Shown: positions 16,008 through 58,837 of the stretch, piece by piece | Layout: each line of letters starts with the position of its first letter | Position numbering within the stretch: position 1 is the first letter of the stretch | Source of the DNA: Candidatus Pacearchaeota archaeon | GTDB lineage: Archaea > Nanobdellota > Nanobdellia > Pacearchaeales > GW2011-AR1 | Direction of reading: 5' to 3' | NCBI GenBank assembly: GCA_018303845.1 | Contig: JAGVXH010000004.1 | Coordinates: 197,165-261,164, forward strand | DNA: 64,000 nt | Position numbers and translations under genes: made by a program | Notes under the pieces: generated by a model | The model's input: the letters and a program-made list of their open reading frames with translations, nothing else | Database searches by the model: none | What the model was told of the DNA's origin: nothing

Positions 16008-16448
16008 ATGTATAAAAAAAGAGGACAAGCAGCTTTGGAATTCCTAATGACATACGGCTGGGCAATTCTATCAGCAATTATCGTTATTGGAGCACTCGGA
16101 TCATACTTCTACTTTAATCAAGGAGGTACTACTACCGTGGTAGTAAATGCACCATTCTACGGAGTATCAGCTGCAGCAACTACAACTACTCTAAGCCTAG
16201 AAATAGCAAATAAAGGCGGAGAAGACTTGAATACAGTATTAGTTAATGTAACTGGAAATGGACTTGGATGTACTCAACAGACTATAGCTAGTATGGCTGG
16301 AGCATCGCAAGAAGTTGTTGCAATACCTTGTGCTGGTTTAGGCGCATCTGGCTCTGCAGTTAAGGGAAACATTGAGATATCATATCTAAGAGCAGGTAGT
16401 ACGCTTCCATTAACAGTCACAGGATCGGTTTCAACATCTGTTGCATAA
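16008..16448 (+). CDS. archaeal type IV pilin-like protein (class III signal peptide)
   Basis: MYKKRGQAALEFLMTYGWAILSAIIVIGALG. This is a K/R-G-Q prepilin-peptidase-type site, a QxxxE pattern and a hydrophobic helix, followed by a Thr/Ala/Gly-rich beta region. Confidence 0.78.
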   Translation: MYKKRGQAALEFLMTYGWAILSAIIVIGALGSYFYFNQGGTTTVVVNAPFYGVSAAATTTTLSLEIANKGGEDLNTVLVNVTGNGLGCTQQTIASMAGASQEVVAIPCAGLGASGSAVKGNIEISYLRAGSTLPLTVTGSVSTSVA

Positions 16449-29339: not shown

Positions 29340-29744
29340 TTAGATTTTAGTAAAATGTTCTTTCATATCTTTTTTATTTGGGGAGGGCATTTTGTTAATT
29401 ATTTTTTCTAGCCTTTCAACATCTACTTTAAGGTCGTGTTTGTAAATTCCTTTTATTAAGCTTCCAATCTTAAAGATCCTGTCCCTTTCTTTTAATATTT
29501 TTATTTTTCTGAGGATTGAGGGAACAAGCCAACTAAGAAAGAAAAAGGCAAAGGATATAATAAAATTCTTAAATCCAAAAGTAAGATATACCGGGAAGGA
29601 AATTCCTATTATTAAAGCCATATAGATACCCGTGGAAGATATTTGGTTGGAGATTAAAATATCTAAATTTACTAATCTTGCCTCCGTTTTATTTTTTAAA
29701 AAAGAGATTTGATGTTCTATATTTTCTTTTGTTTCTTTATCCAT
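29340..29744 (-). CDS. hypothetical membrane protein
   Basis: Two central TM segments. Markedly AT-rich. No motif recognised. Confidence 0.45.
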   Translation of the reverse strand: MDKETKENIEHQISFLKNKTEARLVNLDILISNQISSTGIYMALIIGISFPVYLTFGFKNFIISFAFFFLSWLVPSILRKIKILKERDRIFKIGSLIKGIYKHDLKVDVERLEKIINKMPSPNKKDMKEHFTKI

Positions 29745-31835: not shown

Positions 31836-32171
31836 ATGGAAGATATCTTTGAAAACACAATCCTTTGTAAGCACTGCAACAAAAAAATGCAGCCAGAACA
31901 AATTTCTAGGAAGGGCTTCATTCTTCGAACTCTAAAATGTGAACCTTGTAAAAATCTAATTGTTCATCCAGAAGACTTAAAAGAATACGAAAGTTTTCAA
32001 AATATCAAGAAAAAACAATTCAAAGTCAAACTTCGATACGTTGGAAATTCCTATGCGGTATCAATACCAAGAGAAATAATTGACTTCATGAATGAACAAG
32101 AAAAACAAATGGATAATATAGTAAATATGTGTATGGAGGATATGAGGAAACTTTCCTTAAGATTTAGATGA
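31836..32171 (+). CDS. zinc-ribbon + AbrB/SpoVT-like DNA-binding protein
   Basis: CKHC...CEPC ribbon, then [23 protein letters not shown] (AbrB swapped-hairpin pattern). ATGA overlap with cdc48. Confidence 0.6.
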
Positions 32172-34483
32172 AAGAAGACAAAGAACAAACATTAAAATTA
32201 AGAGTAGTTGAAGCACTCCAAGAAGATGCCTACAAGGGAATCGTAAGAATAGATCCAAATCTAATGAAAAAACTTTCCTTAGACAGAGGAGACATAGTCT
32301 CAATATCCGGAGGTAGAGAGACATACGTGATAGTAGACCAAGCATATCCAGCAGATCATGGAGAAGCAATAATCCGGATGGATGGGATAACAAGAAAAAA
32401 CGCAAAGACCGGAATTGGAGAGCATGTCCAAATAAAAAAAGGCAAAATTCTAGAGGCAAAAAAAATTACAATAGCTCCAGCCCAAGCAGGAATCATGGTC
32501 AAAGGAAATCCTGATAATTTTAGACGCGGGCTTCTAGGAAAACCTGTGAATAAAGGAGACATTGTAGTAATGGGAGGCGCACAACAGCGTCGAGACATTA
32601 TGTCAGAAGATCTAAACAATTTATTCGGTGGCGACATAAGTGAAGTCTTCAATCAAATGGGATTCGGTGGTATACCAGGCGGACTAACCCAAGTCAGATT
32701 CGTAATCGCTTCAACAACTCCAAGCAAACCTTGCATCATAACAGAAAACACCGAAATCATACTCTCTCCAAAAGCATTAGAAGTATCCGAAGAATCAATA
32801 CCGCAAATAACTTACGAAGATATCGGAGGACTAACTGATGAAGTAAAAAAAGTTCGAGAGATGGTGGAACTCCCATTGAAACGTCCAGAAATTTTCATGC
32901 GACTAGGAATCGAGCCACCAAAAGGAGTCCTGCTTTACGGTCCGCCAGGAACAGGAAAAACTCTCCTTGCAAAAGCCGTCGCAAATGAATCCGAAGCACA
33001 TTTTATTTTACTAAACGGCCCAGAAATTATGTCAAAGTTCTACGGAGAATCCGAAAAGAAAATCCGTTCAATATTTGAAGAAGCAGAAAAGAACGCACCG
33101 GCAATAATTTTTATAGACGAAATAGATTCACTTGCCCCGAAGCGAGAAGAGGCAGGTGGAGAAGTCGAAAGAAGAGTAGTCTCACAATTACTAACAATGA
33201 TGGACGGATTACAAGCAAGAGGAAAAGTCGTAGTCATCGGAGCGACAAACCGTCCAAATGCAATAGACCCAGCTCTTCGTCGTCCAGGAAGATTTGACAG
33301 AGAAGTAGAAATTTCCGTACCAGACAAAGCCGGCCGAATGCAAATATTACAAATTCACACAAGAAATATGCCACTTACAAAGTCCGTAAAACTAGATGAG
33401 CTAGCCAGAAAAACACACGGCTTCGTAGGTGCCGACATAAATTCCCTAGCAAAAGAAGCCGCAATGATAGTTATAAGAAAAAATCTAGATAAACTAAAAT
33501 TAGAAGAAGATAAAGAAATATCACAAGAAATCTTAGACCAGTTAAAAATTTCAGGCAAAGATTTTGAAGAAGCATTAAGAGTAGTAAGGCCTTCCGCAAT
33601 GAGAGAAGTCTTAGTAGAAACCCCGAACACAAAATGGGCAGACATCGGAGGAGTAGACGAAGTTAAGCGAGATCTTCGAGAGGCAGTAGAATGGCCATTG
33701 AAATTTCCAGACGCATTTTCAAGAATGGGAATCACTCCGCCAAAAGGAGTTTTGCTCTATGGTCCACCAGGTACGGGAAAAACTCTTCTCGCAAAAGCCG
33801 TCGCGAATGAATCCGAGGCAAACTTCATCCAAATCAAAGGACCAAGCCTACTAAGTATGTGGGTAGGAAAGTCCGAAGAGGGTGTCCGGAAAATATTTGA
33901 ACGAGCTCGTCAAGTTTCACCATGCATAGTATTTTTCGACGAGATAGATTCTCTAGCTGGTAAACGGGGAACAGGGATGAGCGGTGGCTCTAAAGTAACA
34001 GAAAACGTCCTAAACCAACTCTTAGCTGAAATGGACGGAATCGAAGACTTAACAAATGTCATAGTAATTGGAGCAACAAACCGACCAGACATTTTAGACC
34101 CCGCACTTCTAAGGCCAGGAAGATTCGACAGAATAGTCTATGTCCCAGTCCCAACAAAAGAAGGCAGATTAGAAATCTTAAAAATTCATACAAACAAAAT
34201 GCCAATTGAAAATAAAGAAAAACTAGTAGAAAGTTTATCGGAAGAAACAGAAGGATTCACAGGGGCAGACTTAGAAGCACTGGCAAGAGAAGCCGCAATG
34301 CTTTCCTTACGAGAGGATATATACGCCAAAAAAGTTAAAAAAGAACACTTCGTAAAAGCTATGGAAAAGGTCAGACCTTCCGTGTCAAAAAGCGACGAAG
34401 AGAGGTATAAACAAATCGAATCAAAATATCTAAAATCAGCAAAGGCGGCACTGCTGGATAAAAGTGCGAGCTACACAGGTTAA
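32168..34483 (+). CDS. cdc48: Cdc48/VCP-like AAA+ ATPase (N domain + D1 + D2)
   Basis: Double-psi N domain ([21 protein letters not shown]). Two [15 protein letters not shown] Walker A boxes. Walker [10 protein letters not shown] / IVFFDEIDS. Second region of homology in both rings. Confidence 0.95.
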
Positions 34484-34484
34484 A

Positions 34485-34844
34485 ATGTTCGGAGACGATT
34501 CATTCGCAGGAATCGAAGATTTATTCAACCAACTATCTGGCGCGAGAAGACAATCTTCTTACAGTTCAAGGATTCAAACTCAAACTCTTTTAGGCACAGT
34601 TGAATCAAAAAAAGAAACAAGATTAATTTTTGATTTATCAGGTAAAAAAATAATATCATTAGGAGTTAAAGATGGACTTGAAACAAACGAATATGGAGAA
34701 AGGGTTCACAACGGGCAAAAAACTTTAGAAATAAAACTCGAAGACAATGAAAGCCTAAAATATATTCTTCCAACAGCTCTCGCGAAAAGAAAAATCAGCC
34801 ATACATTTTCTAACGGAATACTGGAGGTTTCCATCCAAAAATGA
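34485..34844 (+). CDS. Hsp20/alpha-crystallin-like small protein
   Basis: The ATG lies 1 nt after the cdc48 stop. C-terminus ...LKYILPTALAKRKISHTFSNGILEVSIQK resembles the end of an alpha-crystallin domain. ATGA overlap with the next cdc48 paralogue. Confidence 0.5.
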   Translation: MFGDDSFAGIEDLFNQLSGARRQSSYSSRIQTQTLLGTVESKKETRLIFDLSGKKIISLGVKDGLETNEYGERVHNGQKTLEIKLEDNESLKYILPTALAKRKISHTFSNGILEVSIQK

Positions 34845-37054
34845 AAAGCAAAATAACTCTCGAAGTAATAGAAACAAATCAAAAATATGTTGGAAAAAAT
34901 TTAGTAACAATATCCAATGTTGATATGGAAGGCTTAGGAATCGTATCGGGAGATATCGTAAAAATAGGAATTAGAAAAGAGCTTTATCTTAGGGCGATAA
35001 GAGTAAGCGATGAGTTCAAAGGAAAACTAAGTATCGACGGAGAAGCCAGATCATTCTTGGGTTTATCAGTCGGAGAAAAAACAACAATATTAAAAGCAGA
35101 AGAAATGCCATTGTTAAAATCGGCAACACTTTCAATTTTACCTCACGAATCATTTTCTAACGAACAACTAAAATCCTACAACTCCCAGTTAAGAGAATCC
35201 GAAGAATTCCAAAAAATTTTAGTAGACTCTCCACTTTCAATCGGACAAAAAATCACAATTCCAACATCAGTGGGAAAGCTCGCATATTCCGTAACAAAAA
35301 TTTTGCCGAAGAAAACAAATTTCGGACTAGTGACAGATTCGAGTAAAATTGAAATTTCCGAAGATATAGGAGAAGGCTCCGGCGCAAACATCTACTACGA
35401 AGACATAGGCGGATTAAAAGAAGAAATCGAAAAAATAAGAGAAATGGTAGAATTTCCAATGAAGCATCCTGATATTTTCCAAAGACTAGGAATCTCTGCA
35501 CCAAAAGGAGTTCTAATGACAGGTCCGCCAGGCACAGGAAAAACTCTTCTAGCAAAAGCAGTCGCAACAGAAACCGACGCAAAATTCATCTCAATTGCCG
35601 GTCCAGAAATCATGTCTAAATATCACGGAGGCTCCGAAGAAAATTTAAGGGCAAAATTTGAAGAGGCAGAAAAAAACACGCCAGCAATAATCTTCATTGA
35701 CGAAATAGATGCAATCGCACCAAAGCGAGGCGAGTCACATGACCAAGCAGAAAAGCGAGTTGTAACTCAACTCCTAACACTAATGGATGGACTAAAGTCA
35801 AGGGGACAAGTAGTCGTAATGGCAGCGACAAACAGGCCAGAAGATTTAGACGAAGCATTGAGAAGACCAGGCAGATTCGACAGAGAACTAAGAATCAACC
35901 CACCAACAGAAGAAGGCAGAAAAGAAATCTTACAAATTCACACAAGAAACATGCCACTCGAAGACAAAGAAGCTTTACTAGAAGAATTTTCAAACAAAAC
36001 AATTGGATACACAGGAGCAGACTTAGAAGTCCTGTGCAAAGAAGCAGCACTTCATTCCGTAAAGCCTTTCTATAGTGCAATCATTTCAATTGGAGAACAA
36101 ATCGACGAACAAGACCAAGAAAAATTACAAGAGTTAGAAGCAAAGAAAAGAGAACTTCTAAACAAAATAATAATCTCAAGAGACGATTTCGTCTACGCGA
36201 TGAAAATGGTCGAGCCGTCGGCCATGAGAGAGGTTCTAATTAAAAAACCAAATGTAAGATGGACAGATGTGGCAGGATTAGAAGAAGCAAAAGAAAAACT
36301 TCGAGAGTTAGTTGAACTTCCATTATTAAGACCAGACTTATACCGAGCAGCCGGAATCAAACCAAGTAAGGGAATCCTTCTTTACGGCCCGCCAGGCACA
36401 GGAAAAACTCTCCTAGCAAAAGCCGTAGCAACGGAATCAAACGCAAATTTCATTTCAGTAAAAGGCCCAGAGTTAATTTCAAAATGGGTAGGCGAATCCG
36501 AAAAACATATAAGAGACATATTCAAAAAAGCAAACCAAGTTTCCCCTGCAATAATTTTCTTCGATGAATTCGACTCAATCTCAAAGTCCCGTGGTTCTGG
36601 AATCGGAAGCGACTCATCAGAAAAAGTAGTCAACCAACTCCTAACTGAACTGGATGGAATAGAAGAATTAGAAAACGTAATAATTATAGCGGCAACAAAC
36701 CGAAAAGACCTAATCGACCCAGCACTTCTAAGGCCAGGAAGAATCGAAGCCCATGTCGAACTAACCAACCCAGATGACGAAACAATAAAAGAAATCTTCA
36801 AAGTCCACACGCGAGAAATGCCACTAGAAAAATCCGTCTCACTAGAAGAACTAGGAAAAATGGCAAGAGGCTGGACGGGTGCAGAAATAGAAAGCGTTTG
36901 CAGAAGGGCAGGGCTAAATGCAATTAAGAGGAATTACAAAGAAACAGATTCCAAAAAACTAACAATCACAAAGGAAGATTTCAAAGAAGCAATGGAAGAA
37001 GTTTCTAAAACAATTGGCAAGTCATTAGAAGAAACAAAACCAAAGAAAAAATAA
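34841..37054 (+). CDS. second Cdc48/VCP-like AAA+ ATPase paralogue
   Basis: Divergent N domain. Two [17 protein letters not shown] Walker A boxes. Walker [10 protein letters not shown] / IIFFDEFDS. Extra linker (EQIDEQDQEKLQELEAKKREL). Ends in KPKKK. Confidence 0.9.
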   Translation: MKSKITLEVIETNQKYVGKNLVTISNVDMEGLGIVSGDIVKIGIRKELYLRAIRVSDEFKGKLSIDGEARSFLGLSVGEKTTILKAEEMPLLKSATLSILPHESFSNEQLKSYNSQLRESEEFQKILVDSPLSIGQKITIPTSVGKLAYSVTKILPKKTNFGLVTDSSKIEISEDIGEGSGANIYYEDIGGLKEEIEKIREMVEFPMKHPDIFQRLGISAPKGVLMTGPPGTGKTLLAKAVATETDAKFISIAGPEIMSKYHGGSEENLRAKFEEAEKNTPAIIFIDEIDAIAPKRGESHDQAEKRVVTQLLTLMDGLKSRGQVVVMAATNRPEDLDEALRRPGRFDRELRINPPTEEGRKEILQIHTRNMPLEDKEALLEEFSNKTIGYTGADLEVLCKEAALHSVKPFYSAIISIGEQIDEQDQEKLQELEAKKRELLNKIIISRDDFVYAMKMVEPSAMREVLIKKPNVRWTDVAGLEEAKEKLRELVELPLLRPDLYRAAGIKPSKGILLYGPPGTGKTLLAKAVATESNANFISVKGPELISKWVGESEKHIRDIFKKANQVSPAIIFFDEFDSISKSRGSGIGSDSSEKVVNQLLTELDGIEELENVIIIAATNRKDLIDPALLRPGRIEAHVELTNPDDETIKEIFKVHTREMPLEKSVSLEELGKMARGWTGAEIESVCRRAGLNAIKRNYKETDSKKLTITKEDFKEAMEEVSKTIGKSLEETKPKKK

Positions 37055-37324: not shown

Positions 37325-38238
37325 ATAACTTCACCTCCCGCAATAACAAAAGTATTCTCAATCTGACTAACAGGCATCCGACTCTTCTCAACTAAAATCG
37401 GATACTCATAAAAAACTCCAGCCCGAACCAAATTTCCCAATATAAATTTAAGTTTAGTCTCCGAACCCCCGAACCCCAAAACCCCCGAACCCCCGTCTGC
37501 TTTCGCTAGCCAGCGAAGGCAGAATGGACGCGTTCCATATTCCCTTTTGACAAATTCCAAAACCTTCCTCGCATCCAAATCTCGAACCTGCCCTTCTCCC
37601 TTCAAAACATAAATCCCACCGCCTTTCCCTTCAATAACATCTCCAACTCCCATAGTCACAAACGGCTCGATCGCAAAAGCAACATTGTCCAAAATTTTCT
37701 TATTCTCATTTCGATAATTAGAAATCGTCAAACCAGCGTGAATATTATTTCGCCCCAATGCGTGTCCACACAAACTCTTAATCACAGCAAACCGCTTATC
37801 ATCCCACTTTTCAACAACTTTCTGCACAGCCTCTCCAACATCTTTAACCTTCATTCCAACTTTCACAATCTTACTAGCCTCAGCCAAAATTTCCTCATTG
37901 AATCTAATCATGTCATCAAATCTTCCATCGTCAGTCAAATCAAAACTAATTGCACAATCTGCAATAAACCCATCAACAGCAACTCCAATGTCAATTTTCA
38001 AAATCCCTTCAGCAACAATATCACAATCACTAGTCGGAGTAAAATGTGCCGCAATTTCATTCAACCCCAAATTAACAGGAAAGGCCCCCTCACCACCAAG
38101 CTCTAAAATCTTAGCGTCTATTAGATTAGCAATATCAATCAACTTCATCCCAGGCTTAACTATCTCACGCGCAAAAACTTTAATTTCCCGAGCAATTTTA
38201 CCAGCCTTAACATAAGAATCAATTTCATTTTTATCCAT
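37309..38238 (-). CDS. map: type 2 methionine aminopeptidase
   Basis: Aligns by eye with archaeal MetAP: AGKIAREI, AFPVNLGLNEIAAHFTP, IDIGVAVDGFIAD, LCGHAL, FAIEPF, PFCLRWL, YEYPILVE. Contains the in-frame G-run insert GGSGVLGFGGS. Confidence 0.95.
   Translation of the reverse strand: MDKNEIDSYVKAGKIAREIKVFAREIVKPGMKLIDIANLIDAKILELGGEGAFPVNLGLNEIAAHFTPTSDCDIVAEGILKIDIGVAVDGFIADCAISFDLTDDGRFDDMIRFNEEILAEASKIVKVGMKVKDVGEAVQKVVEKWDDKRFAVIKSLCGHALGRNNIHAGLTISNYRNENKKILDNVAFAIEPFVTMGVGDVIEGKGGGIYVLKGEGQVRDLDARKVLEFVKREYGTRPFCLRWLAKADGGSGVLGFGGSETKLKFILGNLVRAGVFYEYPILVEKSRMPVSQIENTFVIAGGEVICTTM
37461..37494 (+). repeat. C5-run repeat, variant unit CCCCCGAA (inside the map CDS)
   Basis: ccgaacccccgaaccccaaaacccccgaaccccc. 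On the coding (minus) strand this gives four G4-5 runs. Confidence 0.85.
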
Positions 38239-39059: not shown

Positions 39060-39557
39060 CTAACTTATCCTCTCTTTCCTTCTTCTCTCCTTAGGCAAAA
39101 ACCCAAACAACTTCATCCCATCCGCCCCGACCTTCCCAATCCCAACAAAATCCTTCCCATCAAACGACTTAACGCAAACAAAACCTTCATCCATTTTTTG
39201 CTTCTCCTCTAATTCAATATCCCTTCCCAAAAACCATTCAATCTCCTGTTCCTCTGTCAAAACTAAAACCCGACCCTCAAGTTGCTCCTTCCAAACATGC
39301 ATCCCATCAAGCGAAAGCCTTACCTCACGAACCCCACTTCGATTAACCATATCTTTCCCAACATACAACCCAACACCTTCAATTGGCAACAATTTCCAAA
39401 GATCCATAATCTGCTCCCGGTCCAAATCTCCACTAAACGCCCGAATCCTTTCCTCCCCGCTTCGAACTAGCATCTCTGAAATCTTCGTTATCCCAAACTC
39501 ATTTAATCCATCAACAAACTTTTTCTTCTTCGTTCTGTCCAAAATTTGAATCTTCAT
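39060..39557 (-). CDS. NIP7-like pre-PUA/PUA RNA-binding protein
   Basis: 165 aa. The C-terminus GFVCVKSFDGKDFVGIGKVGADGMKLFGFLPKERR is PUA-like. Length and layout match archaeal NIP7 homologues. Assigned from memory only. Confidence 0.5.
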   Translation of the reverse strand: MKIQILDRTKKKKFVDGLNEFGITKISEMLVRSGEERIRAFSGDLDREQIMDLWKLLPIEGVGLYVGKDMVNRSGVREVRLSLDGMHVWKEQLEGRVLVLTEEQEIEWFLGRDIELEEKQKMDEGFVCVKSFDGKDFVGIGKVGADGMKLFGFLPKERRRKERIS

Positions 39558-39600
39558 TTCCCACCTCTCAATTCAAAATAATCACAATAGTCAAGTCTTC

Positions 39601-39652
39601 CCAAACCCCCAAACCCCCAAACCCCCAAACCCCCATGAAAATCTCCGATTTT
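39601..39652 (+). repeat. (CCCCCAAA)4 + hairpin element, copy 1
   Basis: cc(aaaccccc)x4-atgaaaatctccgatttt. 51/52 identical to copy 2. Confidence 0.95.
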
Positions 39653-39681
39653 AAAAGCCGCCAACTCGGGCGAAGCCCTAA

Positions 39682-39733
39682 CCAAACCCCCAAACCCCCA
39701 AACCCCCAAACCCCCATGAAAATCTCTGATTTT
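39682..39733 (+). repeat. (CCCCCAAA)4 + hairpin element, copy 2
   Basis: cc(aaaccccc)x4-atgaaaatctctgatttt. The flank atgaaaatc-tct-gattttcat (39716-39736) is a perfect 9-bp inverted repeat overlapping the GDPD stop codon. Confidence 0.95.
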
Positions 39734-40488
39734 CATCTCCCACCAGCATAAGCCATATCGTCCGCAATCAATATCGCCAAATTTAATTTCCTAACCTTTT
39801 CATAATCACTCTTAGAAGTCAAACTATAAACTCCAACATCACACCCAGCAAATTTCTTCAAATATTTCTCGCTAACTAAATCCTTCGGTAAAAAAACATA
39901 ATCAACATCAATCAAACGAAAACCAATAATCCCAGCAACCTTCTCAAAAAAACTCTCACTACTAATCAACAATCCAACTTTAACCCCATGAAGCATTCGC
40001 CCTATCTTCATAACAGCAAGAATATTAAAAGATTCAACAATCAAATAATCAAACAACTTTAATCTAGGATTTTTTAAATTAAAATCAATCAACTTCTCAG
40101 CCAATGCATCTTCCAACTTCCCACCAAAATAACCTTTCCTCTTAATCTCCAGCAAAAGATGTTTGGGAATCTTGCCATTTTTCCAATCCTCTAAAACATC
40201 ATCCAGCGTAGGAATAAAACCCTCCTTAAAACCCAAAGCCTTTCCAACATCAATCCTCTTTAAATCATTCATGCCCAAATCGCAAGCATAATTATTCCCG
40301 CCACCAAAACGCTCCAATTTCCTATCATGAAAAACAAAAAGCTTTCCGTCCCTAGACAGCTGAACATCAAATTCAATTCCATCAAACCCCTCTTTCTTCG
40401 CCAACCTAAAAGCCGCAAGTGTATTCTCACAAGCCTTCCCCCGAACACCCCGATGCCCAAATCTCAAACTCTTAAACTTCGCCATCAC
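39733..40488 (-). CDS. glycerophosphodiester phosphodiesterase
   Basis: GHRGVRG..ENTLAAF, GFDGIEFDVQLSRDGKLFVFHD. Typical GDPD motifs. Confidence 0.9.
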   Translation of the reverse strand: MMAKFKSLRFGHRGVRGKACENTLAAFRLAKKEGFDGIEFDVQLSRDGKLFVFHDRKLERFGGGNNYACDLGMNDLKRIDVGKALGFKEGFIPTLDDVLEDWKNGKIPKHLLLEIKRKGYFGGKLEDALAEKLIDFNLKNPRLKLFDYLIVESFNILAVMKIGRMLHGVKVGLLISSESFFEKVAGIIGFRLIDVDYVFLPKDLVSEKYLKKFAGCDVGVYSLTSKSDYEKVRKLNLAILIADDMAYAGGR

Positions 40489-43248: not shown

Positions 43249-45183
43249 CTACTCAAAAAACACCTGCGAAACTCCCCTCACTTTTCCAACCCTACCAACC
43301 ATCCAACAAACATCATCAAGCCCTCGAGGGATAACAACAAAATCACATTCAACATCCCCATTTCCAACAATTCGCGCATTCGCACTCCGAACAACAAACC
43401 CACCTCTCGAAATCGTATTCAACAAATCTGCCAAAATCCCACTCCTGTCTCCGCAAAGAGCTTTAAGTCTCAAAGGTCGATTAAACTTTTCCTTCCAAAA
43501 AACAGGAACAGCATTTTTCAAATTTCCAGCAAGTCGCGGACAATCACTTTTATGAACCAAAATCTTTTTCTGCGATTTCGCAACCCCAAGCAACTCGTCT
43601 TTCGGTAAAGGGTAACAACACTTCGCAAAAGAAAAATCACTTCGCAAAAAATCAGCAGATTCAACCAAGCTATCAAAATCCCTCTCGTCGCCAATCAAAA
43701 TATTCGGTTTCTTCGGAACAGGAATAGATTCATATCTTTTAATCCCCTGTCTAATCTTAGATTTCGCTCTAGATGAAACAACAAACTTCAACCAGTCCCT
43801 TCGTGGCCTCTGATTCTTATTGGTCAAAATCTCAACAACACATCCATTCTTCAAGACTTCCTTCAACGAAACAAATTTCCCATCAATCCTCCCGCCAATA
43901 GCCCGCTCTCCAATCTGCTGATGAATTGAATAAGCAAAATCCAAAAGCGTAGCGTCCTTAGGAAGTTCACGGACATCGCCCTTTGGAGTATAGCAATAAA
44001 TTTTATCCGCAAACAAATCAAGTTTCAAATTCTTCATAAATTCTTTATCAGTTGAATCCCTCTGCGACTCCATCAAAGCCTTCATCCATCCAACCTTCTT
44101 CTCAAAACCAGCATCTCCAGAAACACCCTTATAATTCCAATGAGAAGCAATCCCCTCCTCTGCCTCTTCGTCCATTTTCTCAGTCCTAATCTGCACTTCA
44201 ATTTCCTTAGCATTCTCGTCTCCTGCCTCCCGTTTCCCATCCGCATTTCCAACAGACACCCGCACGACCGTATGAAGCGACTGGTATCCACTAAGTTTTG
44301 GAGAATTAATATAATCTTTTAATCTCCCCTCAACCGGAATAAATCTTTCGTGCAAAATCCCAAGCACATCATAGCAATCTCGCTCTCCCTTAACGATAAT
44401 CCTAATCGCATAATGATCTTTCTGTTTGCTAAGCGGCTCGCCCCTTTTATGTATTTTATCAAAAATACTTTTAATCTGTTTATTTCTCCCCTTAATTTTC
44501 ACAACTCCAACTCGTGGTTTCAAAATCTCTCCAAGTTCCTCAATAAACTTCCTAAGAAATTCTTCTCGTTCACTTTTCGTCTCCTTAAAAAAATTAGAAA
44601 TCTCTTCGTACTTTCGCGGGTGAAGTGTCTTAAACGCAAGGTCTTCCAAATTATTTTTAATATAATCAAGCCCAAGCCTCATCGCCAAAGGAACATAAAT
44701 CTCCAAAATATCCTCGGCAATTCGCCTTTGCTCCTTTTCTTTTAACGCAGAAATAATTCTCAAATTCGCAAGCTTAACAGCAAGCTTAACAAAAACAACT
44801 CGAACATCATCAAGCCCAGTAAGCAAAATCTTCCTAACCATTTCCGCCTGAACCAAAGTATTATTCTTTTTTATTACCCGAAGTTGCAACTGCCCAAAAA
44901 CAATTTTAGCAATCTCTTCACCAAACTCCATAGCAATATCTTTGAAGGCAAGGTCCTTTTCAACGCCATACAAAATACCAGCGACTACAATTTCAGCAGA
45001 TAAACCACTCATGACCAAAATCTCTCCAACGTCAAGATTAAATTCAGAAAGCGGCGTCCTAGAAAATTCTTTTTCTCCAACCAGATTTAGCTCGACAAAT
45101 TCAATCGACTTATTTATCAATCGCAGATCCTTATTAGAATATTTTCTCTCGCAAAGTTCAAGAAATCTTTCCTTATTTTTCAT
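43249..45183 (-). CDS. long RelA/SpoT homologue ((p)ppGpp synthetase; hydrolase domain apparently degenerate)
   Basis: Synthetase motifs GRNKQIKSIFDKI, DHYAIRIIV, YINSPKLSGYQSLHT, EVQIRTEKMDEEAEEGIASHWNYKG. TGS domain (IYCYTPKGDVRELPKDATLLDFAYSIH). CC/zinc-finger region (AKCCYPLP). ACT/RRM-like C-terminus. The HD signature position reads GILYGVEKD instead of LLHDxxED. Confidence 0.88.
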   Translation of the reverse strand: MKNKERFLELCERKYSNKDLRLINKSIEFVELNLVGEKEFSRTPLSEFNLDVGEILVMSGLSAEIVVAGILYGVEKDLAFKDIAMEFGEEIAKIVFGQLQLRVIKKNNTLVQAEMVRKILLTGLDDVRVVFVKLAVKLANLRIISALKEKEQRRIAEDILEIYVPLAMRLGLDYIKNNLEDLAFKTLHPRKYEEISNFFKETKSEREEFLRKFIEELGEILKPRVGVVKIKGRNKQIKSIFDKIHKRGEPLSKQKDHYAIRIIVKGERDCYDVLGILHERFIPVEGRLKDYINSPKLSGYQSLHTVVRVSVGNADGKREAGDENAKEIEVQIRTEKMDEEAEEGIASHWNYKGVSGDAGFEKKVGWMKALMESQRDSTDKEFMKNLKLDLFADKIYCYTPKGDVRELPKDATLLDFAYSIHQQIGERAIGGRIDGKFVSLKEVLKNGCVVEILTNKNQRPRRDWLKFVVSSRAKSKIRQGIKRYESIPVPKKPNILIGDERDFDSLVESADFLRSDFSFAKCCYPLPKDELLGVAKSQKKILVHKSDCPRLAGNLKNAVPVFWKEKFNRPLRLKALCGDRSGILADLLNTISRGGFVVRSANARIVGNGDVECDFVVIPRGLDDVCWMVGRVGKVRGVSQVFFE

Positions 45184-47953: not shown

Positions 47954-48169
47954 TTATTCAAAATACCCATAAACATAATCCCCCTTGGAAACAATCCGCC
48001 CCCCATCATCATGCTCCATCGAAACATTATCCCTCACCAAATCATAACTAACACTCCCACCGCAAACCATCGGCAACAATGTCATGCACAATAGAACCGC
48101 AAAAAAAATGCCCCGCCCCGAACCAAGAACGCTTTCTCTTTCAATTTTTTGTTTTGTTTGTTTTTTCAT
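47954..48169 (-). CDS. small secreted/anchored protein (third gene of the RHS module)
   Basis: Basic N-terminus, a hydrophobic segment ending ..LLPMVCGG, 71 aa. ATGA overlap with the upstream gene. Confidence 0.4.
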   Translation of the reverse strand: MKKQTKQKIERESVLGSGRGIFFAVLLCMTLLPMVCGGSVSYDLVRDNVSMEHDDGGRIVSKGDYVYGYFE

Positions 48170-48609
48170 AGGGCTAAAATGAGAAATACCATAGAGACTA
48201 TGAAAAGTATCATAGAGCTCAATATCACAATTTTATAAAATTTTAATTTTTTATCTTTTTCATTCAAATGTAAAATAAAGCTAAAAAATGCATAAGGATT
48301 ATATCTGGTATATTCCGGCATTTGTTTTGAGATAAAAGGGATTTCGGTCATATCTGTTAACTTATCTAGATATTTATGATTCTTGTTCTTTAAGTGTAAA
48401 TACATCTTAAAATTAAGATTATAAGATAAAAAGAGAAGAGCTATTGCTAATATATTAAAAAATATTTCAAGTAAATAAAAAGTAGACATCTCTCCTTTTA
48501 TCATTCCATAGATTATGGCTCCTTGTATTATTATGAATATCGGTAGGCCAAAAATGATGATTGCTATCAAAAAACCCCTCCACAAAGCATAGTTTTTTTT
48601 ATTCTTCAT
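48166..48609 (-). CDS. 4-TM membrane protein, candidate immunity protein for the RHS C-terminal domain
   Basis: Lies immediately downstream of the RHS ORF and overlaps it. Four hydrophobic segments. Visibly more AT-rich than its neighbours. Confidence 0.5.
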   Translation of the reverse strand: MKNKKNYALWRGFLIAIIIFGLPIFIIIQGAIIYGMIKGEMSTFYLLEIFFNILAIALLFLSYNLNFKMYLHLKNKNHKYLDKLTDMTEIPFISKQMPEYTRYNPYAFFSFILHLNEKDKKLKFYKIVILSSMILFIVSMVFLILAL

Positions 48610-50616: not shown

Positions 50617-51561
50617 ATGCAAAAGATAATCCCTAAATCAGATTTCCCAAAATTCATAAACAACCTAATAAAATCAAACCTCGTCATAGCCCCAATATTC
50701 GCCCCCGACACAAAATTCCAAAAAGTAAAATCCTTCGACGAAATATATCTAGACAAAATAACTTGGATTCCAGCAAAACAACATTTCCAACCAGAGCAAG
50801 AAACCCTCCTAGAATTCAAGAAAAACAAGCCAACAGAACTAGAAGGACAGATCCCAAAAACAATCCTCTTCGGACTAAGGAAGTGCGACCTGAACGCAAT
50901 CCAAGTTCTAGACAAAGTAATGTATGATAAACAGTATCTAGCAAAAAGAAAAAACACTGTCCTAATAGGCATCCACTGCGAAACTCGGGACAAATTCTGT
51001 TTCTGCAATTCAATGGAGCTCCAAAACTTCCACGACCTCTACATATTCCCAAAAGGAAAAAACTACATAATAGACGTCCAAGGAGAAAAGGGAAAAGCCC
51101 TAGTAGAAAATCTTCAAACACTAGAAAAAGAACTTCCAATTCCAATTCCAAAGAACTCAAAAAAATTAAAAAATCTTAACATAGCAAAAAATTACAAAGA
51201 TTCAATCTGGGAAGCTGACACCTCCAACTGTTTATCTTGCTCAGCCTGCACCGTATACTGTCCAACCTGCAACTGTTTCGACATCAAAGATAACCTTAAC
51301 ATCGACCTAAAATCAGGAACAAGAACTCGTAGCTCCTCATCTTGCCAACTAAAATCCTTCTCCAAAGTCGCCGGAGGAAAGTCCTACAGAGACTCCCGCC
51401 TCTCCCGTTTCAAACATTTCGTCTACCACAAAATCTCATATTTCAAATCCCAACACGGTCGCCCAATGTGTGTCGGATGTGGAAGATGTCTTCGAGTCTG
51501 CCCAACAAAAATCGACTGGGTCAAAACAATAAATAAACTGCCAAAAAAGAAGAATGGATGA
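50617..51561 (+). CDS. hydB: sulfhydrogenase beta-type subunit (4Fe-4S ferredoxin-domain protein)
   Basis: ATG 50617 is preceded by agaggtg. Two ferredoxin-type cluster motifs, CLSCSACTVYCPTCNC and CVGCGRCLRVCP. It sits upstream of the gamma, delta and alpha subunits, as in Pyrococcus hydBGDA. Confidence 0.78.
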   Translation: MQKIIPKSDFPKFINNLIKSNLVIAPIFAPDTKFQKVKSFDEIYLDKITWIPAKQHFQPEQETLLEFKKNKPTELEGQIPKTILFGLRKCDLNAIQVLDKVMYDKQYLAKRKNTVLIGIHCETRDKFCFCNSMELQNFHDLYIFPKGKNYIIDVQGEKGKALVENLQTLEKELPIPIPKNSKKLKNLNIAKNYKDSIWEADTSNCLSCSACTVYCPTCNCFDIKDNLNIDLKSGTRTRSSSSCQLKSFSKVAGGKSYRDSRLSRFKHFVYHKISYFKSQHGRPMCVGCGRCLRVCPTKIDWVKTINKLPKKKNG

Positions 51562-52321
51562 AAAAATAAAAAACATAGTAGAAAAATTCCTTAAAAGTTG
51601 GAAAGAATTAGATAAAGTAAGTGCAGTAATTATTTGCGGAAGTTATGTAACGGGAAACCCAACAAAACATTCCGACATAGACGTCCAAATAATTCTTAAA
51701 AATGGAACAAAATGGAGAGAAAGAGGAAATAAAATAATAGATGGAATACTTTTAGAATATTTTGCAAATCCGAAAAGTGAAATATTGAGGTCTATGGAAA
51801 AAGAATTCTTAGAAAGAGATAGGGCTACTGCACATATGTTTTTTACAGGGGAAATTATAATGGATAAATTTAGCGAAGCAAAAGAATTAAAAAAATTGTC
51901 AAAAAAATATTTATCAAAAAATTATAAGTCAACAAATAAAGTAAAAATAGGTTCGGAGAAGTATTCATTATGGGATATGCAAGATAATTTAGAGGAAGTC
52001 TATGAAAAACAATTAGGAGATTTTAGATTTGTTTATTATAACTATATGTCAAATATTTTTTCAAATTATTGCGAATATATCGGATTCCCAGAAGTGCCAA
52101 ATAATAAAATTCTAAGATTTTTAACGGATAAAAATGATAGAAAAAAATATATAATTCCAGAATTTCCAGACAAGAAATTCATAAAAATATTTTCTAAGAT
52201 GATAAAATTAAAAGAAGAAGAGAAGATGGTGAATGAATATAAAAAAATAACAAAACATGTCATAGGTAAAATGGGGGGCTTCTCAATAAATGATTTTAAG
52301 CAGAGGTTGAAAATAAAATGA
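51554..52321 (+). CDS. Pol-beta-superfamily nucleotidyltransferase (KNTase-like), inserted within the hydrogenase operon
   Basis: SAVIICGSYVTGNPTKHSDIDVQII (G-S ... D-x-D NTase motif) plus a helical C-terminal half. 8-nt overlap with the hydB stop. Confidence 0.72.
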   Translation: MDEKIKNIVEKFLKSWKELDKVSAVIICGSYVTGNPTKHSDIDVQIILKNGTKWRERGNKIIDGILLEYFANPKSEILRSMEKEFLERDRATAHMFFTGEIIMDKFSEAKELKKLSKKYLSKNYKSTNKVKIGSEKYSLWDMQDNLEEVYEKQLGDFRFVYYNYMSNIFSNYCEYIGFPEVPNNKILRFLTDKNDRKKYIIPEFPDKKFIKIFSKMIKLKEEEKMVNEYKKITKHVIGKMGGFSINDFKQRLKIK

Positions 52322-52387: not shown

Positions 52388-52433
52388 CCAAACCCCCAAA
52401 CCCCCAAACCCCCAAACCCCCAAAATCGGAGGG
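52388..52433 (+). repeat. (CCCCCAAA)4 element, copy 3, ending in aaaatcggaggg
   Basis: cc(aaaccccc)x4 then aaaatcggaggg. The GGAGG lies 7 nt before the hydG ATG. Confidence 0.95.
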
Positions 52434-52439
52434 ACCCAA

Positions 52440-53243
52440 ATGAGCTATCTCCCTATTCCCCACAAAATAGAATCCATAAAATCCTACACCCCAGATGTAA
52501 AACTCTTCCGCATTAAATCCAATCTAAATCCTGCTCCAGGAACTTTCTTAGAAGTCTCAATTCCAGGAATCGGAGAATGTCCCTTGGCGTCATGCTCTCA
52601 TAATAAAGGATACATAGAACTCCTAACAAAAAACGCTGGCAATGTAACTCAAGCAATCTTCAACCTAAAAAAAGGCGACACAATCTTAATTCGAGGGCCC
52701 CACGGTCACGGCTTCCCCTTAGAAGAATTAAAAAACAAAAACCTAATCCTAATCGCAGGCGGAACAGGAATAGCCCCAATAACTTCCATGATAAATTACA
52801 TCGAACAAAACAAATCCCAATTCAAAAAAATATTCATCTACTTCGGCTTCCGCGACGAACAAAACATTCTCCTTAAAGAAAGAATAAAAAAATGGGAGAG
52901 TGTATTCCATCTACACATAGGCCTATCAAATGATCCAAATAATCATGACTACGAAAAAGGCTTCATTAATCAAATCATAGAACATCACAAACCTTCCGTC
53001 CAAGACACCGTAGCCCTTCTTTGCGGTCCAGAAATAATGATGGACTGTGCAACAAAAGAATTGAATTTTCTAGGAATCCCAAATTCACAAATCTATTGGT
53101 CGTTAGAGCGAAGAATGGAATGTGCCTTCGGCTCCTGCGGCAGGTGCCAAATCCAAGACCTCTACGTCTGCAAAGACGGACCCATATTCCAATATTCAAA
53201 AATTAAATCTAGGTTAGACAATGAAAATTCAAGCCAAGCCTAA
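52440..53243 (+). CDS. hydG: sulfhydrogenase gamma-type subunit (FAD/NAD(P)-binding, C-terminal 2Fe-2S)
   Basis: Ferredoxin-reductase-type fold (LIAGGTGIAPITSMI). C-terminus CAFGSCGRCQ...YVCKDGP. ATG 52440 is chosen because the ORF-track N-terminus is translated repeat sequence. Confidence 0.8.
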   Translation: MSYLPIPHKIESIKSYTPDVKLFRIKSNLNPAPGTFLEVSIPGIGECPLASCSHNKGYIELLTKNAGNVTQAIFNLKKGDTILIRGPHGHGFPLEELKNKNLILIAGGTGIAPITSMINYIEQNKSQFKKIFIYFGFRDEQNILLKERIKKWESVFHLHIGLSNDPNNHDYEKGFINQIIEHHKPSVQDTVALLCGPEIMMDCATKELNFLGIPNSQIYWSLERRMECAFGSCGRCQIQDLYVCKDGPIFQYSKIKSRLDNENSSQA

Positions 53244-53997
53244 AGTCGGTTTCTACGGAATCTCGGGTTGCTCAGGTTGCCTACTAACCGTTCTCTACGA
53301 AGATTGCTTCCTAGAACTGCTAAACTTAGTAGACATAAAATCCTTCCCTTTCATAAAAGAAAACAACTATGAAGGAAAGCTAGATTATTGTTTTATAGAA
53401 GGAACAGTTTGCTTCGACGAAGATATCCTAACAATAAACAAATTAAGAGAACGTTCAAATAAAATAATAGCCCTAGGTTCCTGTGCCTGCTTCGGTTGTG
53501 TCCCATCAATGGGAAACTTTCGAAACAAAGAAAAAATAATGAGCTTTGTCTATCCAAAGCACAACCACCTAAAAGAAACCCCACCAACTCCAATCAATCG
53601 CCATATCAAAGTAGACTACCACATTCCACAATGTCCGCCAGACAAAAAAGAAATTCTAGAATTCATAAAATGCATATTAACAGAAAGGGAATTCAACCCC
53701 ACAAAAAACCCAGTCTGTTTCGAATGCAGAAAAAAAGGAAATCATTGTTTACTTGAAGACAATAAAATTTGTTTAGGACCAGTAACTTCAGGTGGTTGCA
53801 ACGCCCTTTGCCCAACCAACAAAACAGTCTGTTACGGATGTCGAGGACCAAATCCAGATGCGAATTACGAAGCCTTTTTCAAAATGTTAAAAAAGTCAAA
53901 GCATACCAACAAAGAAATAAAAGACAAACTCGAAACATTTGCAGGATTAGCATTTAAAGAAAAAGAAGGAGATTCAAGTAAATGGCTAGAGAAATAA
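53221..53997 (+). CDS. hydD: [NiFe] hydrogenase small (delta-type) subunit
   Basis: KVGFYGISGCSGCLLTVL and later GSCACFGC. Further Cys clusters (CFECRKKGNHC, GGCNALCP, CYGCRGP). Confidence 0.85.
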   Translation: MKIQAKPKVGFYGISGCSGCLLTVLYEDCFLELLNLVDIKSFPFIKENNYEGKLDYCFIEGTVCFDEDILTINKLRERSNKIIALGSCACFGCVPSMGNFRNKEKIMSFVYPKHNHLKETPPTPINRHIKVDYHIPQCPPDKKEILEFIKCILTEREFNPTKNPVCFECRKKGNHCLLEDNKICLGPVTSGGCNALCPTNKTVCYGCRGPNPDANYEAFFKMLKKSKHTNKEIKDKLETFAGLAFKEKEGDSSKWLEK

Positions 53998-55262
53998 ACC
54001 TTAACCACATTTGTAAAATAGAAGGGCACGCAAGTTTAAATTTAAAGATAGAAAAAAATAGAGTCATAAAATGCGAACTTAAAGCTTCAGAAGGAGCAAG
54101 ATTCTTCGAAGCGTTAGTCCTCGGAAGAAACATCGAAGACATTCAAGAAATCGTCTCCAGAATTTGCGGCATCTGTTCCTGCTCTCATTCAGTCGCCTCA
54201 GTCCAAGGGTTAGAAGAGGCTTTAGGCATTAAACCTTCAGAGCAACAAAAATTCATAAGAGAAATTCTTCTTCTGGCAGAACGAATCCGAAGTCATGCAA
54301 CACATCTTTATTTCCTTTCTCTTCCAGATTATCTAGGAGCGTCCTCGGCGATAACATTAAAACAAGAACATAAATCAAAAGTTCTAGACGCTCTAAAAAT
54401 AGTGACGCTTGGAAATAAAATAGTAGAAAAATTCGGAGGCAGAGAAATGCACCCATTTTTAAAAATCCAAGAAGAGTTAAGAAAGGAAAACTTCGAAGAA
54501 TTAATCGCTCAATTAAAAGAAACAAAACCCCTAATCCTAAAAACAATAGAACTCTTTAATAATTTAGACTATCAAAAATTAGAAAGAAAATCAGAATATC
54601 TTTCTTTAAACGAAAAAGACAAATATGCCAACGTCTCAGGAAAAATCTATGCTGGAAAAGAAACCTTCGTAGATGACGACTATAAAACTCATCTTGCCGA
54701 AAATATCAAAGAATACGCAACGTCAAAATTCGTCCTTCATAACAAACACACATTTTCAGTAGGTGCAACTGCCAGGATTTCGAATAACCACAATCAACTA
54801 GATTTAGAAACAAAAAAAGAATTATCAAAAACAAAAATAACTTTCCCCATAACAAACCCACATCACAACTTAATCTGCCAAGCCTTAGAAATATTAAATG
54901 CAGTCAGCAGAATAACAGAATTGCTTCAGTCGCCCCCAACCCCCCAAACTTCAAACCCCCAAACCCCCAAACTTCCAAACCACCAAAACGGGACAGGAGT
55001 TTCCGCTGTTGAAGCCCCACGTGGCACTCTCTTTCACGAATACAAAATAAACAAATCTGGAATAATAGAATATTGCAACATAATAACTCCAACGGCGCAA
55101 AATCTCAATATAATGGAATCCGACATAACTCTTCTAGTAAACATTCTACTAGAACAAAAGACTTCACAAAAAGAAATCGTAGAACAAATAGAAAAATTAA
55201 TCCGTTCCTACGACCCATGTTTTAGTTGCTCAACACATTTTCTAAAAGTCAACTGGATATAA
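53982..55262 (+). CDS. hydA: [NiFe] hydrogenase large (alpha-type) subunit
   Basis: N-terminal RICGICSCSHS (RxCGxCxxxH). EAPRGTLFHEY. C-terminal DPCFSCSTH (DPCxxCxxH). Contains the repeat-derived insert PPTPQTSNPQTPKLPNHQ. Confidence 0.92.
   Translation: MAREINLNHICKIEGHASLNLKIEKNRVIKCELKASEGARFFEALVLGRNIEDIQEIVSRICGICSCSHSVASVQGLEEALGIKPSEQQKFIREILLLAERIRSHATHLYFLSLPDYLGASSAITLKQEHKSKVLDALKIVTLGNKIVEKFGGREMHPFLKIQEELRKENFEELIAQLKETKPLILKTIELFNNLDYQKLERKSEYLSLNEKDKYANVSGKIYAGKETFVDDDYKTHLAENIKEYATSKFVLHNKHTFSVGATARISNNHNQLDLETKKELSKTKITFPITNPHHNLICQALEILNAVSRITELLQSPPTPQTSNPQTPKLPNHQNGTGVSAVEAPRGTLFHEYKINKSGIIEYCNIITPTAQNLNIMESDITLLVNILLEQKTSQKEIVEQIEKLIRSYDPCFSCSTHFLKVNWI
54933..54993 (+). 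repeat. degenerate (CCCCCAAA)n element inside the hydA CDS
   Basis: cccccaaccccccaaacttcaaacccccaaacccccaaacttccaaaccaccaaaacggga. The tail aaaacggga resembles the aaaatcggaggga tail of copy 3. Confidence 0.8.
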
Positions 55263-55290
55263 TCTGTGTCAATCCGTGTAATCTGTGGCC
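55261..55290 (+). repeat. triple 9-10 nt repeat family, copy h (aatctgtgtcaatccgtgtaatctgtggcc)
   Basis: Lies between convergent hydA and the protease gene. The last codons of the protease ORF (ATDYTD) are read from it. Confidence 0.85.
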
Positions 55291-58808: not shown

Positions 58809-58837
58809 AATCTGTGTAATCTGTGTAATCTGTGGCC
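58809..58837 (+). repeat. triple 9-nt repeat family, copy i (aatctgtgtaatctgtgtaatctgtggcc)
   Basis: Three tandem 9-mers 10 nt downstream of the second GxxExxY stop. Confidence 0.9.

Follow-up and report, generated by a model that had tools for sequence, protein, structure and literature searches.

Among the systems described so far, the closest are the Rickettsia palindromic elements (RPEs), which measure ~100-150 bp, are palindromic throughout and fall into recognisable sequence families. The locus considered here lies in a 64-kb stretch of a Candidatus Pacearchaeota genome (64,000 nucleotides of contig JAGVXH010000004.1, referred to as a whole as the window), in which the gene of the methionine aminopeptidase (MetAP) carries a translated array of G-run octanucleotides with a DNA hairpin at its 5' side. 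As with RPEs, repeat DNA is kept in frame inside essential genes, at the protein surface and in many genes of a reduced genome, and in one relative (locus L021) the likeness extends to a copy of a dispersed repeat that sits in the MetAP loop itself. However, the window insert is a tandem octamer of 33-35 nucleotides (nt), the only palindrome, an 11-bp hairpin composed of host codons, lies beside it, and the MetAP copy has only GGGGGTTY units, and neither hairpin nor flanks, in common with the four other arrays of the window. The parallel with RPEs had been drawn in an earlier reading of this DNA from its letters (the original prediction); it stands as regards the in-frame retention and the L021 copy, and falls as regards the window copy, which lacks shared unique sequence, a palindromic body and an RPE-like length.

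Coding microsatellites and contingency loci are likewise short-unit tandem repeats within open reading frames (ORFs) and local mutation hot spots. The window array differs from them in its fixed length among strains and in a unit that is not a multiple of three, and on/off frameshifting would be intolerable in an essential gene. Canonical G-quadruplex (G4) motifs of the form (G3+N1-7)x4 have been the subject of a survey in Archaea (Brazda et al. 2020, PMC7565180). By sequence the window array belongs among them, with at least four tracts of 4-5 G and loops of 3-4 nt, its folding being predicted only; it departs from them in being derived from a tandem repeat, confined to one replication-type strand, coupled to a hairpin on its 5' side and translated.

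Short hairpins and a strand-specific orientation are also features of the REP/BIME-RAYT system (repetitive extragenic palindromes, bacterial interspersed mosaic elements and their associated tyrosine transposases) and of the IS200/IS605 elements, but the hairpins found here are not conserved in sequence and come without a GTAG-type guide motif. G-run arrays are not known as part of REPs, and no HUH transposase domain was detected by Pfam in the window ORFs, the coverage being 64 kb plus ~20 kb of the genome. Finally, bacteria and yeast are known to undergo quasi-palindrome template-switch mutagenesis. Such a process would account for clustered changes, nonsynonymous ones included, that perfect an inverted repeat beside a replication obstacle, but it is not known as a systematic companion of G-run arrays, a role in which it is proposed here. 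Full-text literature searches brought up no account of in-frame G-run arrays in DPANN archaea that are coupled to hairpins and locked to one strand, an absence that is no proof of novelty. The finding in the window is classified as an extension of in-frame repeat insertions and of G4-forming tandem repeats, and the probability that a new mechanism lies behind the hairpin coupling is not negligible.

A translated G-run array in the MetAP gene

In the best reading of the data, the MetAP repeat belongs, as a translated copy, to a lineage-wide type of short G/T-rich array, built of 7-, 8- or 14-nt units and usually containing about four G-tracts. The minus strand at 37461-37494 reads GGGGGTTCGGGGGTTTTGGGGTTCGGGGGTTCGG, and Tandem Repeats Finder (TRF) describes the array as 4.4 copies of period 8 with 85% matches. 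That such a repeat lies in frame inside the MetAP gene, as had been predicted, is borne out by the sequence, by the ORF, by Pfam (Peptidase_M24, PF00557, 5e-26) and by the match with the MetAP of Pyrococcus furiosus (1XGS and others, 4e-57); the encoded peptide is D-GGSGVLGFGGS-E. The HMMER alignment places a 9-residue gap in the Pyrococcus enzyme opposite GGSGVLGFG, between M244 and P245, where the Pyrococcus sequence quoted in the original prediction is correct. The stretch from PFC to EYP spans 43 residues in the window protein versus 32 residues in 33 of the 51 orthologue spans that could be delimited (DPANN and others, distant ones at 35-45% identity included). The 9-11 extra residues announced beforehand correspond to 9 with respect to Pyrococcus and 11 with respect to insert-free DPANN orthologues.

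An AlphaFold2 model of the protein, built with 39 homologues, has a mean pLDDT (predicted local distance difference test) of 90.4 and superposes on P. furiosus MetAP (1XGS/6LVH) with a TM-score of 0.88/0.92 and an rmsd of 2.0-2.1 A in Foldseek. The 39-sequence alignment keeps D83, D94, H159, E191, E284 and H65 invariant, the first five of which we take, as in M24 enzymes such as that of P. furiosus, to be the metal ligands and the last the active-site histidine. Because the model superposes on its homologue and these presumed ligand and catalytic residues are invariant, the enzyme looks intact. The position of the insert suggested earlier agrees with the model: residues 247-259 form a coil between helices 241-246 and 260-272 of a well-modelled fold, with block pLDDT values of 73 and 57 that drop below 50 at residues 249-252. 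As modelled, the insert is a disordered surface loop in the type-2 helical subdomain.

At the nucleic acid level the array is a canonical four-tract G4 motif, GGGGG-TTC-GGGGG-TTTT-GGGG-TTC-GGGGG. The minimum-free-energy structure predicted by ViennaRNA with its gquad option includes the G4, and a four- to five-tier G4 is predicted directly beside the hairpin with DNA and RNA parameters alike. The RNA is predicted to form a hairpin stacked on the four-tract G4, at -45.9 kcal/mol with the G4 allowed versus -30.0 without it. The potential RNA G-quadruplex proposed from the letters is hence present as a motif and predicted as a fold.

Several trivial origins were discarded. The motif GGGGN4GGGGN4GGGG has 17 matches in the window versus 0.12 expected, and 0 of 100 shuffles reach that count, which rules out chance. 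The same array recurs in independent assemblies (strain L002 and other members of the strain cluster), which rules out an assembly artefact. Excision as an intron of the bulge-helix-bulge type is unlikely, as all coding arrays keep the frame though their units are of 7 or 8 nt, and a known RNA family is ruled out by Rfam, which yields three tRNAs only in the window.

DPANN metagenome-assembled genomes that bear the labels Woesearchaeota, Pacearchaeota or Nanoarchaeota supplied the best MetAP matches and 80 genomic loci. Among the closer relatives the MetAP loop varies greatly in length, and in the repeat-bearing lineages its DNA consists of differing G/T-rich tandem arrays with units of 7, 8 or 14 nt. 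Strain L002 (98.9% identical) holds three perfect copies of GGGGGTTC; L001/P0045, from a different clade and 62% identical, uses GGGGGTTC in the same reading frame; L006 and L009 contain two copies of GTTGGTAGTGAGnn (the unit is also given as GTTGGTAGTGAG); the L021, L198 and L199 loops are of the GGGTCGG, GGTAGTGGG and GGGGATTC types, respectively; and L197 carries four copies of GGTGTCA, foreseen from the peptide VSGVRCQVSG and then confirmed in the DNA. The L199 gene holds its (GGGGATTC)-type array twice, near residue 150 (10449-10479) and in the 245-loop. Given that the 32-residue span prevails in 33 of 51 orthologues, distant ones included, comparison of the sequences indicates that the insert-free loop is the ancestral state. 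A Gly-rich loop ancestral to the lineage is therefore ruled out, although many relatives do have a loop rich in G, S, V and L that is encoded by other units. The presence or absence of the insert across orthologues gave a divided answer: it is missing from many close and distant ones, and the 62%-identical L001 has the same GGGGGTTC codons.

In a rough neighbour-joining tree of MetAP the insert-bearing sequences are scattered among insert-free ones; the window lineage stands beside P0002, whose loop reads IRDKELDIVES and has no array, and L001 falls in another clade. Insert-free orthologues read G-F-G/E/S exactly at the insertion point, with the codons GGT TTT GGA, GGA TTT GGA, GGG TTT AGC or GGT TTC GAT. 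In L021 the MetAP insert and one of the dispersed, intergenic repeat copies can be aligned along ~110 nt, a match that takes in the unique blocks CGGACGCT, ACCCTCACAGAT and GTTGGGGCA that do not belong to the G-runs. This family is present in 5 copies in 21 kb (positions 1596-1660, 4008-4072, 9022-9086 and 16243-16307), flanked by G-runs and with a conserved hairpin TTATCAGCTTCGCTGATAGTTGGGGG.. / TTATCAGCTTCGCTGATA. Since the L021 insert shares unique blocks with the intergenic copy, it is clear that copying from elsewhere takes place in this clade. The same locus also has a 27-nt unit, GGGACACGAGCTAGGTATTTGGGATTT, in arrays, and 1-200 / 3000-3130 are listed among its repeat regions.

Comparable in-frame arrays occur in other genes. 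Enolase carries them in two lineages, at one site, with two different units and hairpins; LeuRS does so as well; PolB in four lineages, 13 aligned orthologues being free of the insert; and a 165-residue protein at one site in three lineages, the three units being GGGGGTTC, GAAGGCG and a variant of the G-run. No array is present in seven orthologues of this protein, the window's own among them. In the genome of the window itself, the Cbf5/TruB pseudouridine synthase contains (TGGTGGTT)4.4 in frame, read as DGGLVVWWFGGLAG (L200 20176-20210); this array lies ~10 kb beyond the window start, with an MCM gene just past Cbf5. Most coding arrays are in sense orientation, and for more than 15 of them with 7- or 8-nt units the host ORF is open in every case. 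Frame conservation in every coding array despite such units speaks for translation of the arrays and for selection acting as a filter on their length.

The unit itself is not a property of the lineage, as (GGGGGTTY)3GG was found in >113 metagenome contigs, mostly from high-GC bacteria and telomere-like contig ends. Shared flanks around the arrays of some soil-bacterial contigs (e.g. L107, L120 and L162; contigs L083-L195) hint at separate repeat families there. The idea that array length acts as a 'ruler' of about four tracts was dropped, since the mode of the tract number is the same in high-GC organisms.

Variation among strains affects the sequence of the array and not its length. An alignment of 7662 nt between L002 and the window shows 98.93% identity and zero indels, and of the 11 MetAP differences between them 4 are located in the 42-nt array. 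In the 90%-identity cluster there are five full-length MetAP members, all of 309 residues, with three insert alleles (DGGSGVLGFGGSE, NVGSGVRGFGGSE and DGGSGARGFWGSE). Among strains, 5 of 13 insert positions are variable versus ~4% elsewhere in MetAP, some alleles have interrupted G-tracts (GTGGG in L002), and no polymorphism in copy number was seen among ~5 strains. Because the length is fixed while the sequence varies, the array is a substitution hot spot or a weakly constrained segment, and not a copy-number-variable contingency locus. A Poisson test for an excess of strain differences in the array gave p=0.001, which deserves little weight because differences are also clustered in two paralogues of the CDC48/VCP-type AAA ATPases. 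These paralogues (~66% identical in DNA) contain most of the window-L002 differences, in patches at 33.7-34.0 kb and 35.3-35.65 kb, and this clustering suggests gene conversion or recombination.

Hairpin coupling and strand orientation

The most informative part of the locus is the hairpin next to the array, which the original prediction had regarded as possibly coincidental; it is no coincidence. The coupling was assessed on 20 non-redundant arrays from the window and from low-GC DPANN-type loci, with loops of 3-10 nt and 20000 random positions as background. Of the 20 arrays, 11 have a perfect stem of at least 6 bp that ends no more than 6 nt away on their 5' side, versus a background of 1.5% (binomial 2e-15); for stems of 7 bp or more the figures are 9 of 20 versus 0.5%; and no such hairpin was found on the 3' side in any of the 20. 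The hairpin of the window MetAP ends 7 nt from the array and hence lies outside the count of 11. Later cases are L010 (7 bp), L015 (12 bp), L021 (7 bp), L024 (8 bp) and L196 (6 bp). On the G-rich strand the order from 5' to 3' is hairpin, 0-9 nt and array. By contrast, none of 67 (GGGGGTTY)n arrays in high-GC metagenome contigs has an upstream hairpin of at least 6 bp (background 3.3%). Therefore, the coupling is specific to the lineage, and a generic companion of the repeat or an artefact of the detector is ruled out. The hairpin alone is insufficient for an array, because G/T-rich sequence follows only 17 of the 9223 stems of 7 bp or more in these genomes.

At the MetAP site the 11-bp hairpin folds at -10.0 kcal/mol with DNA parameters. 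The same calculation on the 33 nt coding for F-C-x-R-W-L-x-K-x gave -10.0 for the window, -7.4 for L002, -7.0 for L001, -13.4 for L010 and L011, -8.8 for L198, -5.9 for L197, -4.4 for L009, -3.6 for L199 and -3.3 kcal/mol for L006, versus 0 to -3.8 in 44 orthologues without repeat-type inserts, among them the nearest relative, L196, at -0.8 (Mann-Whitney p=4e-6). All orthologues with repeat-type inserts possess a hairpin at this site, and it is confined to them. Its stems covary, with TGC:GCA in the window and TGT:ACA in L198, and CTTCGC/GCGAAG as against CTCGA/TCGAG in L006. When FCLRWLAKADG is recoded with the codon usage of the window, only 0.015% of 20000 draws reach -10.0 kcal/mol (p ~1.5e-4), and the native hairpin makes use of rare codons: CGC (1.3% of Arg), CTA (3% of Leu) and TTC (8% of Phe). 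Synonymous recoding, together with the 44 orthologues devoid of it, rules out that the hairpin is a by-product of a conserved peptide. In other genes even the protein is altered: in the PolB of L010 a nonsynonymous change of EILMIS to EILCIS (M to C) makes the palindrome, in the 165-residue protein of L024 it is made by the change of HVWKEQLE to HNWRSQLY (including V to N and E/T to Y), and in L015 the ancestral codons at the hairpin are replaced outright.

The arrays also obey a strand rule. The GC skew of the plus strand lies between -0.25 and -0.5 over most of the window, while the GC skew at third codon positions, calculated on the coding strand of each gene, is +0.68 in minus-strand genes and -0.44 in plus-strand genes; the AT skews of the genes are likewise opposite in sign by strand. 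Because the third-position skews change sign with the gene strand, the minus strand is G+T-rich whatever the direction of transcription. A G+T asymmetry that is independent of transcription is a signature usually ascribed to replication. The G-rich strand carries all arrays of the window, each of the 17 strict arrays counted in the window plus 82 loci, and nearly every G-rich TRF repeat of 6-16 nt. In L066 the arrays are still on the G-rich strand, which is there opposite to MetAP. Array orientation thus follows the DNA strand and not the gene. The G+T-rich strand is putatively the leading strand, and hence the lagging-strand template. Four genes of the window break the skew rule (Table 1) and may be recent arrivals or inversions.

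Origin of the arrays and their hairpins

We put at about an even chance the explanation that a lineage-wide mutational process linked to the replication strand makes the arrays, that selection keeps the in-frame ones in tolerant loops, and that the hairpin results from the same process. Arrays would be generated in the DNA itself, on the G+T-rich strand, and would survive in genes only when their length is a multiple of three, their unit free of stop codons and their site a disordered surface loop. In MetAP the likely seed would be the ancestral Gly-Phe-Gly/Glu codons (GGN TTY GGN), which already provide most of a GGGTTYGG unit, and such a seed would explain why the same unit has arisen at the same site in two clades. 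Reiterative slippage, or a template switch to another array guided by microhomology, may then have written ~33 nt. As for the hairpin, the preferred scheme is that a fork or polymerase stalls at the G4-prone array and provokes intramolecular template switches that perfect a neighbouring quasi-palindrome: the nascent G-rich strand would stall on entering the array and fold back on the quasi-palindrome, so that one switch could give clustered, even nonsynonymous changes. The arrangement of hairpin, 0-9 nt and array fits such a stall and fold-back of the nascent strand. In the opposite order of events, a hairpin on the G-rich template would stall synthesis and promote slippage of the sequence just copied; both orders are compatible with the data, which cannot decide between them. 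Alternatively, the hairpin may be selected because it accompanies a G4.

Several observations weigh against this replication-linked process. A unit of 8 nt cannot grow stepwise in an essential gene without frameshifts, so the insert must have come in a single event of ~33 nt, an outcome not readily expected of simple slippage. In L196/P0002, the nearest array-free relative, a 14-residue loop of the IRDKELDIVES type stands in place of G-F-G, leaving the seed state of the immediate ancestor uncertain. The unique sequence common to the L021 MetAP insert and intergenic copies points to transposition or conversion, not to growth in situ, and the zero copy-number polymorphism in the ~5 strains is unexpected for an actively slipping microsatellite. 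The replication strand was deduced from skew alone, with no origin or terminus located, and the neighbour-joining tree on which the argument for independent gains is based is rough and carries no support values.

A further step would be that DPANN archaea of the Woesearchaeota/Pacearchaeota type own a dedicated strand-specific process or signal which pairs a hairpin with an array the size of one G4 on the lagging-strand template and rewrites or maintains both at orthologous sites. This proposal is speculative and less likely than not. If true, host genes, essential ones too, must encode a hairpin-array module by means of rare codons and even altered residues, and an undescribed class of genomic element or mutational mechanism would be shaping proteins in reduced archaeal genomes.

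It is rather unlikely that the insert is a mobile or dispersed repeat, similar to RPEs or to miniature inverted-repeat transposable elements, which was spread by transposition of single-stranded DNA or by gene conversion and landed in frame. The five copies of L021 with their conserved hairpin, one matching the MetAP insert over ~110 nt, are what this origin would produce, as are the hairpin GATTTTCAT common to both intergenic copies of the window and the related contig L153, the units favoured genome by genome, and the double occurrence of one unit in the L199 MetAP. The strict strand orientation could also be likened to that of IS200/IS605 elements, single-stranded DNA transposons that target the lagging-strand template in strict orientation. 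However, the window MetAP copy has the simple unit as its only common element, the hairpin, the flanks and even the unit (TTC versus TTT) being different, and almost every hairpin is peculiar to its locus, many being made of the conserved codons of the host gene. Neither terminal inverted repeats nor target duplications are visible on inspection of the flanks of the window arrays, with no dedicated search made for them, and a scan of ~60 window ORFs of at least 100 residues in the 64 kb, which have ordinary archaeal housekeeping functions, revealed no gene for a transposase, reverse transcriptase or integrase. Besides, this type of array is common in unrelated high-GC organisms.

We regard as decidedly unlikely that hairpin and G4 together constitute a selected cis-acting element in single-stranded DNA, giving polarity to a translocase or helicase, serving in priming or fork pausing, or acting as a recombination signal, to which genes merely accommodate. 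An orientation locked to the DNA strand and not to transcription is consistent with such a module, and so are the rare codons and the covarying, partly nonsynonymous changes that keep the hairpin (as in the L010 PolB and the L024 165-residue protein), the recurrence of the same architecture with different sequences at orthologous sites, the loss of coupling in high-GC organisms bearing the same arrays and the stable array length across strains. It fits poorly with the finding that about half of the arrays have no hairpin, that most close relatives lack an array at these sites and that G-tracts are broken in strain alleles such as that of L002; the 64 kb show no regular spacing and no evident rule of position, and no binding protein or phenotype is known.

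An effect at the RNA or protein level, by which the mRNA hairpin and G4 would tune MetAP translation or the Gly/Ser-rich loop would be an adaptive extension of the insert domain, seems very improbable. The predicted stacking of the hairpin on the G4 and the mostly sense orientation of the coding arrays would agree with it. The helical insert subdomain faces the ribosome in eukaryotic MetAP2 and Ebp1, in line with the titles of PDB entries, and the loop, which lies in that subdomain, might by analogy do so here. Nevertheless, arrays are also antisense (in the hydrogenase large subunit) and intergenic, the insert is the most variable part of MetAP among strains, different lineages have unrelated peptides at the loop and many relatives have no insert at all. 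Three remaining candidates were dropped: origin recognition boxes (a dyad plus a G-string), because the hairpins differ and no orc1/cdc6 was present in the ORFs scanned, an AT-rich unwinding region not having been sought, and ectopic CRISPR spacer integration and a diversity-generating retroelement, whose architectures do not fit and for which no Cas genes and no reverse transcriptase, respectively, were present among the window ORFs scanned.

Further features of the window and significance

The window holds five G-run arrays, each of them G-rich on the minus strand (Table 1). The two intergenic copies lie between the GDPD gene and that of the 165-residue protein; the hairpin of copy A (39716-39736) overlaps the GDPD stop codon, and the array of copy B is also present in strain L002. 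The site of the array next to the hydrogenase gamma-subunit gene is identical in L135, L187 and L201. The degenerate array lies within the large subunit of a group-3-like sulfhydrogenase, where it is read as PPTPQTSNPQTPKLPNHQ; this loop is ~4 residues longer than in the closest relatives, in which the position is shorter, hypervariable and rich in P, K, N and T.

(GGGGGTTY)n contains zero stop codons in all six frames. Therefore, the 60-residue ORF that spans the two intergenic copies, and that is made nearly entirely of their arrays, hairpins and short spacers, is probably not a real gene but a spurious product of the stop-free repeat. The reading register that the original prediction saw as common to this ORF and MetAP carries little weight for the same reason.

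A second family of dispersed tandem repeats, (AATCTGTGT)3 followed by GGCCAAT/GGCTAAA, has three intergenic copies on one strand. A gene with a nucleotidyltransferase domain (NTP_transf_2/Polbeta) lies between those of the beta-like and gamma subunits of the hydrogenase; its third-position GC skew is reversed, and the 52.4-kb array comes right after it. The window also encodes a RelA/SpoT-type protein with HD, RelA_SpoT and TGS domains, here in an archaeal genome.

Table 1. Coordinates of the arrays, hairpins and genes mentioned in the text (window numbering)
Feature	Position	Strand	Description
MetAP coding sequence, type 2 (archaeal), 309 residues	37309-38238	-	PF00557, P. furiosus MetAP match, AlphaFold2 model
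MetAP G-run octanucleotide array	37461-37495	-	GGGGGTTC type, 4.4 units; codes G249-S259, +11 residues
MetAP hairpin	37496-37523	-	CTGCCTTCGCT-GGCT-AGCGAAAGCAG; directly 5' of array; codons C-L-R-W-L-A-K-A
Intergenic copy A	39682-39736	-	9-bp hairpin ATGAAAATC-aga-GATTTTCAT (39716-39736), then (GGGGGTTT)4.4 (39682-39716)
Intergenic copy B	39600-39655	-	hairpin AAAATC-gga-GATTTT (approximate coordinates), then (GGGGGTTT)4.5 (39600-39635)
(GGGGGTTT)4.6 array	52388-52424	-	upstream of and antisense to hydrogenase gamma-subunit gene (start 52437, Pfam)
Degenerate G5T3 array	54933-54987	-	antisense and in frame in NiFe hydrogenase large subunit (53982-55262, +)
60-residue ORF	39554-39736	-	probably spurious
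CDC48/VCP-type paralogues	32168-34483; 34841-37054	+	AAA ATPases
RelA/SpoT-type gene	43249-45183	-	HD, RelA_SpoT, TGS
Hydrogenase beta-like subunit gene	50617-51561
Nucleotidyltransferase-domain gene	51554-52321	+	breaks skew rule
Hydrogenase gamma-subunit gene	52437-53243
Other genes breaking skew rule	13095-13463; 29340-29744; 48166-48609
(AATCTGTGT)3 family	13518-13543; 55260-55287; 58809-58834	+	intergenic

Stop-free repeats of this kind can yield spurious ORFs, such as the one described above. Variation in the loop length of DPANN marker proteins is partly driven by repeats, which matters for alignment and phylogeny. The arrays also offer a natural system in which to follow replication, transcription and translation through stable G4 motifs in cells that lack many repair genes. 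If the coupling holds genome-wide, a force acting at the DNA level, either mutational or functional, edits the proteins of very small archaeal genomes, MetAP, enolase, LeuRS, PolB, Cbf5 and hydrogenase among them.

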